In this document: piece by piece, positions 4,676 through 10,266 of the stretch
Numbering within the stretch: position 1 is the stretch's first letter
Layout: each line of letters opens with the position of its first letter
NCBI GenBank assembly: GCA_043811955.1
Contig: JBDRMQ010000092.1
Location: 1 to 35,250 of the forward strand
Length of the DNA: 35,250 bases
Direction of reading: 5' to 3'
From: a bacterium
GTDB lineage: Bacteria > Margulisbacteria > WOR-1 > O2-12-FULL-45-9
Notes under the pieces: model-generated
The model's input: the letters and a program-made list of their open reading frames with translations, nothing else
Told to the model about the DNA's origin: nothing
Databases searched by the model: none
Made by a program: the position numbers and the translations under genes

Positions 4676-5778
4676 AAATCATGCTCTCTGCCGGAGAGGT
4701 TTCCGGCGATGTCCACGGCTCTCATTTAGTCCGCGAGCTTAAAAAGCTTAAGCCAGAAGCATACTTCTTTGGTATGGGCTCAGAAAAACTTTTGGCTGAG
4801 GGCGTAGCCGTTAAAGTTGACATTACCAAGCGCGGCACAATTGGCATTTTTGAAGCCCTGCCTAATGTTCTCCCTGTTTTTCTCGCCTATAAAAAAATGG
4901 TTGGCCTGATGAAGTCAGAAAAACCAGATATGCTTATTCTCGTTGATTCCCAAGGGATTAACATGCCCCTAGCCAAAGCTGCAAAAAAGCTAGGGATTAA
5001 AACAGTCTACTACATCGCCCCGCAAGAGTGGCTTTGGGGAACACCCAAGGGCGTTAAGAAGGTTTCCGAAACAATTGATTTAATTATTTCCATTTTTGAG
5101 AAAGAACACGAAACCTACCAGCAAGCTGGAGGAAACTCAATCTATTTCGGTCATCCCCTACTAGACATTGTTAAAGGGGACAGCCAGTTTGCAAAAGGTG
5201 AAGGGCCCACGATTGCCCTGTGCCCAGGAAGCAGAACCCAGGAGATCAAAGGCTTACTCCCTATTCTTTTAAAAGCTGGGGAGTTGCTCAAAAAAGAACT
5301 TCCAAAGGCAGAGTTTATAATCCCCGCGGCGTCGACAGAAATGATCAAGAAAATTTTTAATTATATTGGCGAGGATTTTCGGCCTAAAGCTATCATTGGC
5401 CATACCTACGACATCCTGGCCAGCGCAGACCTCGCGCTTTGTGCCTCAGGCACAATTAATCTTGAAGCTTCAATTTTGGGAACACCAAATATCATGGTTT
5501 ATAAGCTCTCTCCCCTGACCTACTTTGTCGGCAAACATATTCTAAAAATTGGCGAGAAATTAAAATATTTTAGTATGCCTAATATGTTGCTTGATGAGCG
5601 GGCTATTCCAGAACTCGTTATGGAACAAGCTGAACCAAAAATAATTGCTCAAGAAGCCCTTTCTATTATTATTGATCAAGAACGACAAGCCAAGATGAAG
5701 GCCTCTTTTGAAAAACTGCGAACAAAGCTTGGCCAGCCTGGCGTGATTGAGAAAGTAGCCAGGGAGATTTTGAAATAG
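4672..5778 (+). CDS. lpxB: lipid-A-disaccharide synthase
   Basis: N-terminal MKIMLSAGEVSGDVHGSHLVRELK is the LpxB hallmark, and the length and C-terminus are GT19-like. I chose the ATG at 4672 because the lpxB fragment at 2225 starts at the same residue. Confidence 0.9.
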   Translation: MKIMLSAGEVSGDVHGSHLVRELKKLKPEAYFFGMGSEKLLAEGVAVKVDITKRGTIGIFEALPNVLPVFLAYKKMVGLMKSEKPDMLILVDSQGINMPLAKAAKKLGIKTVYYIAPQEWLWGTPKGVKKVSETIDLIISIFEKEHETYQQAGGNSIYFGHPLLDIVKGDSQFAKGEGPTIALCPGSRTQEIKGLLPILLKAGELLKKELPKAEFIIPAASTEMIKKIFNYIGEDFRPKAIIGHTYDILASADLALCASGTINLEASILGTPNIMVYKLSPLTYFVGKHILKIGEKLKYFSMPNMLLDERAIPELVMEQAEPKIIAQEALSIIIDQERQAKMKASFEKLRTKLGQPGVIEKVAREILK

Positions 5779-5799
5779 CCACAAATACCGCAAATCCTA
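5695..5799. repeat. direct repeat L: last 27 codons plus stop of lpxB, plus 21 nt
   Basis: Aligns to 10162-10266 over 105 nt with 5 substitutions. Confidence 0.9.
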
Positions 5800-5800
5800 C

Positions 5801-5828
5801 TTGACAATCCAATAATTACGCGTATAAT
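5801..5828 (+). promoter_or_regulatory. promoter of ATPase copy 2, leaderless-type
   Basis: TTGACA (5801-5806), 16 nt, TATAAT (5823-5828), 6 nt (tgaaac), ATG at 5835. Confidence 0.6.
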
Positions 5829-5834
5829 TGAAAC

Positions 5835-7610: not shown

Positions 7611-8420
7611 TTGGGAATGAATTTAACTCGCGAGGATGGGAAAGCATCGGTTCTGATAGAAGCTATGCCCCACGAACAAAATCTGTGTCTATTTTTGCAA
7701 AAGCAAGGAGGCCTCGCAGGCAGGCTGGAGGCAGAAGAACTTGTTTTAGCAAAAGACCTCTTGAATAATTACATTAGAGGACAAAAGGTTCTGGTTGTGC
7801 CTGCTTATTCTGTAAATGCCTTTTTATTTAAGCTGTTTGGGGCAAGAGAGGTTGTTGGTGTTGACGCCGATCAAAGGACAATTTCTTGGCTAAGGGCGAT
7901 TGCCAATAATTTTAATTATCGAGAAATTGGTGAGATATTTATGTCGTTTTGCCGGTATCCAAATATCTACGCAATGCTCAATGTTTTGCCTGGGATGAGC
8001 AGGGAGGCGAAGGGGAAGGAATTGTTGTCAAGAATTCAAGAGGCCGTTACAACCAACAATAATAACCTGGGTGGAGTTCGCTTTTTAAAAGGCTTTTTAG
8101 GTGAGTTGGCTGGTGTTTTCCGTGGTCGAGAAGCATTTCGCTTTATTTATGTCCCTTTTTTACTGGGCATTAAAAATGGAGTAGAGGATCGGGAATCGAT
8201 TTCAAAATCATTTGAAGATATCTGGGAAGTCGCTGAGCCTGGGGCAAGGGTAATGATTGCTCCTTTTGCTGGATCTGATCGGGAAGCAATAGGTAAATAT
8301 GAATCTGAAGAAAAAATAATTGATGCGCTGGAAAACATCATGCCAAAGGATAAGTTTACTTTTGTCGGGGATATTTTTATGGATGGGGTCTCGGCAGTTA
8401 TTCTAGAAGTTATTAAGTAG
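7611..8420 (+). CDS. Rossmann/class I methyltransferase-like protein with a degenerate SAM loop (269 aa)
   Basis: KVLVVPAYSVNAFLFKLFGAREVVGVDAD has the beta1-loop-helix-beta2-acidic layout, but PAYSVN replaces GxGxG. TTG at 7611, with an alternative ATG at 7617. Confidence 0.5.
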   Translation: MGMNLTREDGKASVLIEAMPHEQNLCLFLQKQGGLAGRLEAEELVLAKDLLNNYIRGQKVLVVPAYSVNAFLFKLFGAREVVGVDADQRTISWLRAIANNFNYREIGEIFMSFCRYPNIYAMLNVLPGMSREAKGKELLSRIQEAVTTNNNNLGGVRFLKGFLGELAGVFRGREAFRFIYVPFLLGIKNGVEDRESISKSFEDIWEVAEPGARVMIAPFAGSDREAIGKYESEEKIIDALENIMPKDKFTFVGDIFMDGVSAVILEVIK

Positions 8421-8430
8421 GGGGTACAAA

Positions 8431-10119
8431 ATGAACGCAGTTGGAAGTGCTCAAAGCTCAAAACTACATCGGACAAATTTTCCGGGACAAACAATTAATT
8501 TAAATATTTCTAAAAGGCCTCAGCGCTTTGATTTGCAGAATGGTGCAGCAAAGCTTTTCCTAACTCTAGGAAGCCAAAACATCTCAGGGGCACCCACAAA
8601 CGCGGTTTTGTTCCAAGGGTCAAACAAGGATTTTTGCCTGGCAATTTTTGGCGTTGGGGTTGTTAAATTACCTGAAGGGAAAACAATTGTCGGCAGGTTC
8701 CCAGAAGAGCACCCTGCAGATAATTACATCAAACTTCCCAACACTTCCGAACACAATCTTGTTTCCGGACAACACCTAACCATTAATATTAATAAAGATG
8801 GAACGGTTACTCTTAATGAGTCCAGACAAACATCTTATGGGACAGCATGTCAAATTGTAGAAATTGAAAGCGTTCCAAACCTTCCTCAAAATGAGGCTTT
8901 GTCTGAAGCAAAGTTAAGCGCTGAAGATATTTTAATCCCAGAGTCGTGGCTCGGCCAAAAGAGTTGCGCCTTCAACCTCAACAATACAACTTATACAATA
9001 TCCAATTCTCCTATGGGTCCAATAATCGGCTCTGGATTAGGGCATGAAGCGCGGAACACGCCAATTGGTGAGGAGCCCAAGCATTCATTCAAGGGAGTAA
9101 CGGCACATAGAAATGGGGGCATGATAATTGTCCGACCCACAATTACAAATGAGCCTCCCTCTCCTGCGCCAATAAGAAGCATCCCTCAACCCCCAATTGC
9201 CAAAGCAGCACCAACGCCCCCTCTTTCAATTGAATCCCTGCGCGCCACGCCAAATCCTTTTGACCTTGAAAAAGCCAGAGGGCTTATTCCTATAATCAAG
9301 AGATTCCTTAATAGGGAATCCGGCATGTATTATTTGTTGACTGGAAAGGCAACAGCTAACATTAGCAATGAGGCCGCGATGCAATGGTTAAGCTCCTCGG
9401 GAGGGAAAAACTGGCTAAGTGCAATGAAGGAGTTTTGCCCAGTCTCAGTGTCCGTTCATAGAATAATTTATTTACAAAATTGGTGGAGATTCTCAACTCG
9501 GCCGATCAAGGAAAGCAAAGAAGACCAAATCCAGCAAGATTGCAAAATCTATCTGACACCCCAAGACGAGAACGTTGTCAGTACCTTTCTAGCCCTAAAA
9601 AATCTGTTGGAGGCCTCTCCTGAGCTTAATAAAGCTGGTTTTGAAATCAAAATGCTCAATCTCGACGAGAGATTAAGCGAGGTCAAGCTTTCGATGAATC
9701 AAAACGATAGAATTGTTATTTATGCGTCAAAAGAACATATAAACCTGGCCCTGCCAATAGTGCAAAGATACCTTGAAGAACACAGGGGAATTCTTAAAAG
9801 GGAAGGAGTTCCTTTTGCTCAACCAATGGTTGGCCGAAACGGAGAAATCTTCTCGGGAGCCTGTGTAACAGAGCAGCCAAGTAATAAACATTCATTTTTT
9901 TCCACGCAGGCCGAAATCATCGAAAAATGTGTGCAACAAATTTCTTCTAACGTCGACAGGTCGGTGCAGGATAGCCCCCTGACTGCTACGCAAAAGTTGC
10001 AACGTGTTTTGTCGCAACAAGACGGGGAAAAGTTTGTGGCACAAGCATTAGTTCATTTGTATCCTAATGTAGCCAGCTCCTTTGGCATTCAGTCCGACAA
10101 TATTTCATTCCAAAGCTAG
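8431..10119 (+). CDS. large multidomain protein: FHA-like N-domain, Pro-rich linker, uncharacterised C-terminal domain (562 aa)
   Basis: IVGRFPEEH...LVSGQHLTINI...QTSYGT (FHA-like). The linker is NEPPSPAPIRSIPQPPIAKAAPTPP. C-terminal motifs are KIYLTP...GFEIK...DRIVIYAS. SD-like GGGGG lies 6 nt before the ATG. Confidence 0.6.
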   Translation: MNAVGSAQSSKLHRTNFPGQTINLNISKRPQRFDLQNGAAKLFLTLGSQNISGAPTNAVLFQGSNKDFCLAIFGVGVVKLPEGKTIVGRFPEEHPADNYIKLPNTSEHNLVSGQHLTININKDGTVTLNESRQTSYGTACQIVEIESVPNLPQNEALSEAKLSAEDILIPESWLGQKSCAFNLNNTTYTISNSPMGPIIGSGLGHEARNTPIGEEPKHSFKGVTAHRNGGMIIVRPTITNEPPSPAPIRSIPQPPIAKAAPTPPLSIESLRATPNPFDLEKARGLIPIIKRFLNRESGMYYLLTGKATANISNEAAMQWLSSSGGKNWLSAMKEFCPVSVSVHRIIYLQNWWRFSTRPIKESKEDQIQQDCKIYLTPQDENVVSTFLALKNLLEASPELNKAGFEIKMLNLDERLSEVKLSMNQNDRIVIYASKEHINLALPIVQRYLEEHRGILKREGVPFAQPMVGRNGEIFSGACVTEQPSNKHSFFSTQAEIIEKCVQQISSNVDRSVQDSPLTATQKLQRVLSQQDGEKFVAQALVHLYPNVASSFGIQSDNISFQS

Positions 10120-10161
10120 ACTTGGCGCCGAAAGATTTTCTCTTCCGCGCTTCAAACAAAA

Positions 10162-10266
10162 ATGAAGGCCTCTTTTGGAAAACTGCGCACGCAGCTTGGC
10201 CAGCCTGGCGTGATTGAGAAAGTAGCCAGAGAGATTTTGAAATAGCCACAAATACCGCAAATCCTA
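10162..10266. repeat. direct repeat R: orphan diverged copy of the lpxB 3' end
   Basis: Encodes MKASFGKLRTQLGQPGVIEKVAREILK-stop with no gene body upstream. It is followed by the same 21 nt as repeat L. Confidence 0.9.

Follow-up and report, generated by a model that had tools for sequence, protein, structure and literature searches.

The 35,250-nt stretch of DNA analyzed in this work (positions 1 to 35,250 of contig JBDRMQ010000092.1, assembly GCA_043811955.1, forward strand; hereafter, the window) belongs to a chromosome of the Saganbacteria (WOR-1, Margulisbacteria group) in which a 4.36-kb segment (5800-10161) separates lpxB, the gene for lipid-A-disaccharide synthase, from a degT-family aminotransferase gene. 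This segment, whose first gene encodes an ATPase-nuclease of the candidate defence family PDC-S01, is a genuine insertion at the lpxB/degT boundary, and is bracketed by two copies of the lpxB tail. Because a recombinase-free scar of the same kind recurs around this ATPase-nuclease family in related genomes, our results suggest that these genes spread by ordinary recombination and not by means of an integrase. The reading we favor, with reasonable rather than high confidence, is that the locus represents a long target duplication of the lpxB end, produced by host recombination through one homologous exchange and one illegitimate joint, without the participation of an integrase.

Pairwise alignment of the two flanking segments (5695-5799 and 10162-10266) gave a gap-free direct repeat with 100 of 105 positions identical and three synonymous changes among its five substitutions, just as the initial annotation of this DNA had described. 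With a looser identity threshold the start shifted to 5686/10153, and the repeat extended to 114 nt at 93%. Both copies encode MKASF(E/G)KLRT(K/Q)LGQPGVIEKVAREILK and a stop codon, followed by the same 21 nt, and frame and stop codon are intact in each of them. Since this is the longest direct repeat within the window, it is not due to chance. The left copy had been taken as the end of an intact lpxB, which the Pfam match of the complete protein corroborated, and the right copy as an orphan located just upstream of the aminotransferase gene, which proved correct, with the degT start (10320) 53 nt downstream. There is no lpxB body 5' of the right copy, and the 42 nt that follow the stop codon of the preceding 562-aa open reading frame (ORF) are unrelated to lpxB. 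Comparison of all the intergenic DNA with the window's own proteins by blastx identified three orphan gene fragments in total, corresponding to this lpxB tail, an lpxB head (2225-2356) and a gyrB tail (25479-25532).

The nearest loci, designated here with L numbers, were found in Saganbacteria/WOR-1 metagenome-assembled genomes (MAGs) and in groundwater metagenome contigs, with LpxB proteins 72-81% identical to that of the window. The initial annotation had proposed a search for empty sites among relatives, and several were obtained, in which lpxB directly precedes degT. The order in L006 is methyltransferase, lpxB and degT, with a gap of 12 nt between the lpxB stop codon and the degT start; the stop codon overlaps the -10 box of degT and there is no scar. 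The gap is 159-187 nt in L002, L008 and L011 (159 nt in L002). At these four sites, compared at LpxB identities of only 72-81%, the sequence of the repeat is single-copy. Given that relatives carry lpxB directly before degT, the claim of an insertion at the lpxB 3' end, with an lpxB tail on either side, could be confirmed; relative to the same empty-site loci, the window has another insertion 5' of lpxB. The site downstream of lpxB is occupied across lineages by at least four unrelated genes (24-42% identical) with the AAA_14-DUF4143 domain pair of the ATPase-nuclease, which start a few nt from the lpxB stop codon, and orphan lpxB tails are also present at L009 and L004. The arrangement was recovered independently of the assembly analyzed here. 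An NCBI contig of 4717 nt (JAHJDC010000083.1) is 100% identical to positions 6509-11225 and extends through the last gene of the island and the orphan tail into degT, while the left junction is present in an independent metagenome contig (L005), which contains lpxB, the same ATPase (87% amino acid identity), a 60-nt spacer and the start of a gene for a protein with a forkhead-associated (FHA)-like domain. With the right junction spanned by a second contig, the left one present in L005 and the join located outside the repeat, a repeat-induced assembly chimera is unlikely.

The absence of integrase- or transposase-like genes between the repeats, also noted initially, was upheld by four hidden Markov model (HMM) libraries (Pfam, PHROGs, NCBIfam and PADLOC), which gave no match to any recombinase, transposase or phage family for any island ORF on either strand. 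Two structure models, of the ATPase and of the 269-aa protein, did not reveal a recombinase either, no integrase is encoded in the island or elsewhere in the window, and no tRNA, tmRNA or other Rfam RNA was detected in the whole window. The island cargo showed no match to restriction-modification families in Pfam, PADLOC or the structure of the 269-aa protein. Several candidate explanations were discarded in the course of the analysis. A transposon would leave terminal inverted repeats, of which there are none at the island ends, and there is no transposase; the duplications are, besides, long and variable. For a prophage remnant, no DNA similarity was found to 50,697 phage records and no PHROG match for the island proteins. 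As for a recombinase concealed among the unannotated genes, the fold of the 269-aa protein is that of an S-adenosylmethionine (SAM)-dependent methyltransferase, and the 562-aa protein is an ORFan. Finally, GC content and skew fail to distinguish the island, and compositional foreignness was also set aside.

The footprint observed at lpxB was found repeatedly. At least ten other insertions, mostly of genes of this ATPase family, are flanked by duplicated host-gene ends of 25-119 nt, and two of the other insertions duplicate whole neighboring genes (around 790 and 890 nt). One case lies in the window itself, where a second AAA_14-DUF4143 ATPase gene separates the end of gyrB from an orphan tail corresponding to its last 19 codons, which begins within the ATPase stop codon; of the four differing codons in this pair, three are synonymous and the fourth exchanges one stop codon for another (TAG to TGA). 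This insertion was read from the window alone, with no related gyrB locus retrieved as empty-site control. In other genomes, the lpxB tail is duplicated around a different ATPase (L009/L010), three serial lpxB tails are present in L004, where an MNT/HEPN toxin-antitoxin pair also lies between two lpxB heads, and both a methyltransferase tail and a degT head plus its promoter are duplicated around two further ATPases in L001. Duplications of the tail of a peptidase M16 gene (four assemblies, L013-L016) and of aroA (L019) were also found, as well as a 789-nt duplication of a PIN toxin-antitoxin module around the ATPase gene in a Chlamydiae MAG (L026). In a non-redundant gene set, in which a direct repeat across the gene was sought within 400 nt, 7 of 18 ATPase genes had a flanking repeat, versus 5 of 128 other genes (Fisher P=7e-5). 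The repeat is also absent from several homologues in Omnitrophota, Deltaproteobacteria and Margulisbacteria; around this family the footprint is frequent, not obligatory.

Some additional observations were made on these loci. A YhcG/DUF1016 gene of the PD-(D/E)xK type lies between two heads of an SNF-family transporter gene in a Margulisbacteria MAG (L021, JASEHX010000011.1, 146-1430); the heads comprise the first 39 codons, are identical at 108 of 117 nt and differ by seven synonymous changes and one non-synonymous change. In the finished plasmid pSn of Simkania negevensis (L033, NC_015710.1, 16.6-19.9 kb), an AAA_14-DUF4143 gene is located between a decayed and an intact copy of an integrase gene, with 73-79% nucleotide identity over about 890 nt. 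At the 3' end of lpxB, 48 nt match without a difference between the window (5728-5775) and L004 (1978-2025), the whole genes being 76% identical, which indicates a recent exchange of the gene tail alone. Orthologous ATPase genes follow a methyltransferase gene in the window (409-1551) and in L001 (7825-9018). The latter keeps an orphan methyltransferase tail, while its ortholog in the window is directly followed by a terminator hairpin, and this shows that orphans are lost over time. A 24-nt repeat found after lpxB in L003 surrounds a phosphoglycerate kinase gene, and was rejected as probably not being an insertion scar.

The nature of the differences between copies bears on their origin. In 12 repeat pairs there were 52 synonymous and 13 non-synonymous codon differences (P=8e-15 versus a synonymous fraction of 0.33), the expected synonymous fraction being 0.20 for random substitution and about 0.33 for an in situ duplication with a neutrally decaying orphan. 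This bias towards synonymous changes strongly supports that the orphans, considered as a class, are fragments of functional alleles from other lineages. The initial proposal that the orphan lpxB tail came from a different lpxB allele under coding constraint thus holds for the class as a whole, but is not demonstrable for the lpxB tail pair that inspired it, in which the proportion of 3:2 is not significant.

The first gene of the island encodes a protein of 380 residues with full-length profile matches to PDC-S01 in PADLOC (E=1e-65) and to AAA_14 (E=2e-23) and DUF4143 (E=8e-36) in Pfam. Its AlphaFold2 (AF2) model, with a predicted local distance difference test score (pLDDT) of 92, retrieved AAA+ proteins (Orc1/Cdc6, RuvB, RFC) and the CARF-family effectors Can2, Card1 and Cdn1 in Foldseek searches. 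GPRxxGK, DE and E..ExK are among the invariant columns of the family alignment; within the D..ExK motif, E309, E324 and K326 are invariant and D311 nearly so. DUF4143 has been placed in the PD-(D/E)xK superfamily (PMC3424549), and PDC-S01, an ATPase fused to a PD-(D/E)xK domain, has been described as very common, with validation pending, and reported to rank fourth in frequency among putative prokaryotic defence systems, with members in bacteria and archaea (PMC12988326). Homologues with 65-68% identity were found in Omnitrophota, Chlamydiota and Deltaproteobacteria, and the family is present on 258 plasmids. The gene is preceded by a promoter (5801-5828) with TTGACA at 5801-5806, a 16-nt spacer and TATAAT at 5823-5828, and the block CCGYAAA..TGG-TTGACA-..TTACG..TATAAT is kept 5' of homologous ATPase genes in unrelated contexts. 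An inverted repeat, CCGTAAA...TTTACGG, surrounds the -35 box of a near-consensus promoter in the window (5787-5828) and in L013, L017, L018, L019, L022, L026 and L041. It is a probable autoregulatory operator for the winged helix-turn-helix (wHTH) domain of the ATPase and would mark the 5' edge of the conserved cassette. An equivalent 3' end was not found; the sequences that follow 17 ATPase genes have nothing in common, and only the 5' promoter/operator block is kept.

In L001, the ATPase gene next to lpxB is a different one (30% identical); behind it come the 60-nt spacer, at 83% identity, and a further FHA-like gene, so that the ATPase cassette and the FHA-like block are separate modules. 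The island is therefore composite, made up of a one-gene ATPase cassette with its own promoter and a separate, fast-evolving block with FHA-like and methyltransferase-fold genes. The 186-aa FHA-like protein resembles the N-terminal part of the 562-aa protein (29% identity) and a 434-aa protein of L001 (34%). The 269-aa protein gave no HMM match and has four distant homologues, and a few of the approximately 30 relatives of the C-terminal domain of the 562-aa protein have a borderline match to HopA1. This FHA-like family, whose members show 28-34% mutual identity and are otherwise ORFans, is found behind the 60-nt spacer in the window (7043-10119), L001 (12415-13719) and L005 (4587-4687), and diverges at the lpxB locus far faster than the flanking genes. 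The deltaproteobacterial ATPase homologue in L024 is also located between genes for FHA-domain proteins. Features of the locus are listed in Table 1; the tandem duplication at 10257-10284 yields a spurious upstream ATG at 10269.

Table 1. Position and characteristics of the features identified in the window
Feature	Position	Strand	Remarks
Orphan lpxB head, 39 codons	2225-2343	+	Matches the real head (4672-4790) at 81% identity; 16 synonymous to 4 non-synonymous differences
Orphan fabZ-lpxA gene tail	2434-2517		After the orphan lpxB head; fabZ-lpxA precedes lpxB in relatives
lpxB (lipid-A-disaccharide synthase), intact	4672-5778	+	Pfam LpxB E=1.7e-81; 72-81% amino acid identity to Saganbacteria/WOR-1 lpxB
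Left repeat copy: final 27 lpxB codons, stop codon and 21 nt	5695-5799	+	
Cassette 5' end: operator-like CCGCAAATCCTAC, then perfect sigma-70 promoter	5787-5834	+	Promoter scan, 12/12 matches
ATPase-nuclease, 380 aa, AAA_14 - wHTH - DUF4143 (PD-(D/E)xK); PADLOC candidate PDC-S01	5835-6977	+	Pfam, PADLOC, AF2
Conserved spacer, promoter/ribosome-binding site region of the FHA-like gene	6978-7042	+	Also after an unrelated ATPase gene in L001 and the orthologous one in L005
FHA-like protein, 186 aa	7043-7603	+	Weak Pfam FHA match, E=0.0025
269-aa protein, class I SAM-methyltransferase-like fold	7611-8420	+	AF2 pLDDT 72; all Foldseek top matches are methyltransferases
562-aa ORFan, FHA-like N-terminus	8431-10119	+	C-terminal domain of ~215 aa with about 30 distant relatives
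Right-hand illegitimate junction, unlike lpxB	10120-10161		Contains CCGCGC at 10145-10150
Right repeat copy: orphan lpxB tail, stop codon and 21 nt	10162-10266	+	
14-nt tandem duplication, GCAAATCCTATTAT x2	10257-10284		Outer edge of the right repeat copy, just 5' of degT
degT-family aminotransferase	10320-11423	+	Pfam E=2e-126; directly follows lpxB in empty-site L006, L002, L008 and L011
gyrB tail (24223-24281), promoter and second AAA_14-DUF4143 ATPase (24282-25478), orphan gyrB tail (25477-25535)	24223-25535	+	

According to the reading we favor, DNA from a related lineage that already bore the cargo beside its own lpxB would have recombined with the resident chromosome. The first exchange would be homologous and take place within lpxB, while the other joint would be illegitimate and fall just 5' of the resident tail, which would thereby have been retained as an orphan instead of being replaced. 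Two routes, inseparable with the present data, could lead to this outcome: homology-facilitated illegitimate recombination (HFIR) of linear DNA whose donor lineage was related and already occupied at this site, or a Campbell-type event in which a circularised fragment with one copy of the tail enters by a single crossover. In favor of this reading are the empty sites, the unrelated ATPases found behind lpxB, the recurrence and enrichment of the footprint, the synonymous bias, the mosaicism evident in the 48-nt block and in the left part of the window, the lack of recombinase, tRNA, terminal inverted repeats and phage similarity, and precedents from the literature. The ATPase-nuclease could have a role in promoting recombination via breaks. 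A site-specific integrase is unlikely, because none is present, the targets are many and unrelated, the duplicated ends include heads and not only tails, and the repeats range from 25 to ~890 nt; this range of lengths, along with the synonymous bias, also makes a fixed staggered cut unlikely.

Several facts weigh against this interpretation or complicate it. As regards the lpxB tail pair, its 3:2 proportion and the location of most derived changes in the orphan give no sign of a foreign allele. When the five differences were polarised with the lpxB tails of four relatives, around four appeared derived in the orphan (two non-synonymous and two synonymous) and one in the functional copy. This polarity is ambiguous as to which copy is the resident one and leans towards decay of the orphan, which would also be expected of a decaying in situ duplicate. 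Furthermore, the two copies are 95% identical, compared with ~80% between the lpxB tails of the nearest lineages, whereas the ATPase gene is only ~83% identical at the nucleotide level to its orthologue in L005 and lpxB reaches 76%. From these values the repeat would be younger than the cargo, or would have been refreshed or converted, and at least two events appear to be needed. The last ~12 nt of the common 21 nt (CCGCAAATCCTA) occupy the position of the operator-like CCGYAAA..TGG that precedes TTGACA in homologous cassettes. The right copy thus seems to hold the first ~12 nt of the cassette, something that a single insertion into a naive site fails to explain, and because these shared nucleotides look like the cassette 5' end the right copy probably derives from an already occupied lpxB-cassette junction.

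The hexamer CCGCGC also deserves mention in this context. It is found at the start of four of eight orphan tails (binomial P~3e-7, for a motif picked post hoc), and its recurrence hints at a sequence preference that would not be predicted from host recombination alone. Copies of the motif noted at these loci are located at 24223, 297 and 10145 in the window; 7714, 8973 and about 12347 in L001; 3905 and 5145 in L009; and about 4517 in L005. A frequent form of the motif, AACCGCGC, with four occurrences in the 35-kb window, begins the conserved spacer after the stop codons of two unrelated ATPase genes. CCGCGC could correspond to a microhomology, a Chi-like site or a nuclease site. Three further points count on the same side. 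Neither a circular or excision junction nor a donor genome was seen in the assembled contigs; the nearest relatives have only ~80% identity in LpxB, so that gain versus loss is judged at genus or family depth; and five of six distant homologues on finished proteobacterial plasmids have no flanking repeat, indicating that the footprint is not universal to the family.

The alternative that best withstands these results, although we regard it as unlikely, is that the ATPase gene is an autonomous, homing-like cassette whose nuclease cuts near a conserved gene end, possibly at CCGCGC or close to it, with repair copying in the cassette and duplicating the target in situ, and the FHA genes being added later. 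The strong enrichment of flanking repeats around the ATPase family would be in line with it, as would the minimal nature of the cassettes (promoter plus ORF), the frequent start of the orphan at the ATPase stop codon, the conservation of the D..ExK motif and the spread of the family over phyla and onto plasmids. The recurrence of CCGCGC at orphan starts and of AACCGCGC after unrelated ATPases points in the same direction, and the polarity of the lpxB tail differences fits in situ duplication followed by decay. However, duplications of such different lengths do not fit a fixed staggered cut, the overwhelmingly synonymous differences indicate that at least one copy has usually been a functional allele elsewhere, and the same footprint is found around cargo other than the ATPase, namely MNT/HEPN and YhcG. 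ATPases that are only 25-42% identical are, moreover, unlikely to have one common target motif, and many members of the family lack a flanking repeat. A related and bolder idea, which we hold as doubtful, is that PDC-S01 genes may be recombinase-less mobile cassettes that make breaks at conserved gene ends, with a preference linked to CCGCGC, and are copied in together with a replacement end. If this were true, the duplicated gene ends would act as portable homology arms with which PDC-S01 hops between lineages, and the genes would constitute a new type of selfish element, which would explain their abundance.

It is improbable that the cargo is ancestral at this site, with the empty sites being secondary deletions and the orphan the result of an unrelated local tandem duplication followed by deletion. 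The ATPase gene and spacer are shared by the window, L005 and, in part, L001, with a divergence similar to that of core genes, and the piece of cassette 5' end in the right copy is what tandem duplication plus internal deletion would predict. Yet the empty sites occur in two separate clades, including outgroup-like WOR-1 genomes, and the one in L006, with its lpxB stop codon overlapping the degT promoter, is scar-free. The occupants of the site are also unrelated ATPases in different lineages, and the existence of the same footprint at many other genes favors a general insertion process.

The initial annotation had recognized in the locus the mark of an element that integrates in the 3' end of a gene. 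Only the insertion at the lpxB end agrees with this; the involvement of many genes, of heads in addition to tails and of repeats from 25 to ~890 nt does not. In its classical form, this would be an element with attL and attR sites, with its integrase acting in trans or lost, and a replacement lpxB tail in attP. Direct repeats at a gene 3' end with the reading frame kept are indeed the textbook footprint of such elements, and the two copies agree in all 21 nt beyond the stop codon, but we consider it quite improbable. There is no integrase in the island or the window, no tRNA or tmRNA, related cargo is found at the heads and tails of many different genes, and the repeats, which derive from at least eight genes, share no common sequence or att core. 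Besides, the left part of the island is common to L005 and L001 while the rest differs, which is not what would correspond to one coherent element. Lastly, the fusion of two strains through the lpxB tail during assembly is very improbable: the source is a MAG and the copies have exact runs of 36-37 nt in common, but the 42 nt of non-lpxB sequence 5' of the orphan place the join outside the repeat, both junctions were independently recovered (the right one at 100% identity) and equivalent footprints exist in several independent assemblies and one finished isolate plasmid.

The region upstream of lpxB (2133-4790) is a patchwork of its own. Besides the orphan lpxB head and fabZ-lpxA tail (Table 1), it contains a duplicated segment with a poly-C tract plus promoter (2133-2218 and 3504-3593), a degenerate MNT/HEPN remnant (about 3599-3969) and a gene for a 253-aa protein whose family was not recognised. 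In this left part of the window, an arrangement resembling that of L001 seems to have been joined to one resembling that of L003. The homopolymeric C tracts, of 14 nt (2156-2169) and 16 nt (3529-3544), each separate the start of a minus-strand gene for a signal-peptide protein (1600-2112 and 2524-3486) from a promoter-like sequence on the plus strand, TTGCAAGCGGAAATTTGCG...GCTATAAT, and may act as phase-variable switches; the corresponding position in L001 is filled with Ns. On a larger scale, the cumulative GC skew has its minimum at about 18.6-19.3 kb, between rnpA-yidC-jag-mnmE on the minus strand and dnaA-dnaN-gyrB-gyrA on the plus strand. The window therefore spans the replication origin, and both ATPase insertions are within 13 kb of it.

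The locus has the structure of an insertion with long target duplication, with a different nuclease family as cargo. That phenomenon was described for restriction-modification genes that lack mobility genes and are flanked by long, variable target duplications; its mechanism is unsolved and a link to double-strand breaks has been hypothesised (PMC2853133). Common to both situations (Nobusato et al., 2000; Furuta, Abe and Kobayashi, 2010, PMC2853133) are an insert of less than 20 kb without a mobility gene; direct repeats longer than 30 bp and variable in length (105 nt and 95% identity in this case), present once in empty-site relatives and often overlapping a gene 3' end; and a selfish or defence nuclease system as cargo, here the PDC-S01 candidate. 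In contrast to those cases, there is no restriction-modification pair, the cargo being a single-gene AAA+/PD-(D/E)xK ATPase and, at other loci, toxin-antitoxin and YhcG genes. The hosts are uncultured Saganbacteria/Margulisbacteria and Chlamydiota, and the copies are, as a class, demonstrably diverged functional alleles, as revealed by the synonymous bias.

Similarities with other processes can also be drawn. A homologous anchor with an illegitimate joint and no dedicated recombinase is characteristic of HFIR and single-crossover integration (de Vries and Wackernagel, 2002; Prudhomme et al., 2002; PMC3240628), and when a circle bearing part of a gene end integrates by one crossover, this homologous end becomes duplicated over 109-950 bp (PMC3240628). 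However, those are laboratory events that take place at ~1e-9 to 1e-10 per cell, whereas the ones reported here have been repeatedly fixed in natural lineages around one gene family, and HFIR usually deletes recipient DNA instead of duplicating it. Displacement of the HFIR type, which leaves orphan arrays, has been modelled for type VI secretion system (T6SS) and Rhs loci (PMC5361080). As in the C-terminal displacement of Rhs, contact-dependent inhibition (CDI) and T6SS genes (Jackson et al., 2009; Kirchberger et al., 2017, PMC5361080), there is a conserved upstream anchor and the old 3' piece is pushed downstream, and serial events build arrays, such as the three lpxB tails of L004. Unlike in those systems, the anchors are housekeeping genes (lpxB, gyrB, aroA, degT) and not polymorphic toxins, and the orphans are non-functional gene ends, not usable toxin tips or immunity genes. 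Islands and prophages that use integrases at gene 3' ends likewise have direct repeats at the gene end and preserve the host frame, but differ in having an integrase and a common att core; here heads are duplicated as well and repeat lengths are very variable.

Taken at this strength, the results imply that insertion of PDC-S01 genes at housekeeping gene ends has happened repeatedly and with no recombinase, leaving behind orphan ends from other lineages. Long target duplication, known for restriction-modification systems, would thereby apply to a second nuclease family and reach uncultured phyla. The locus also provides a simple footprint by which recent gains may be recognized, i.e. a cassette of one gene flanked by a duplicated gene end, with differences between the copies biased to synonymous. 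For annotation purposes, short orphan gene fragments beside such cassettes would be scars and not separately derived pseudogenes. The idea that nuclease-type selfish genes promote their own spread through recombination becomes, in this way, amenable to testing.

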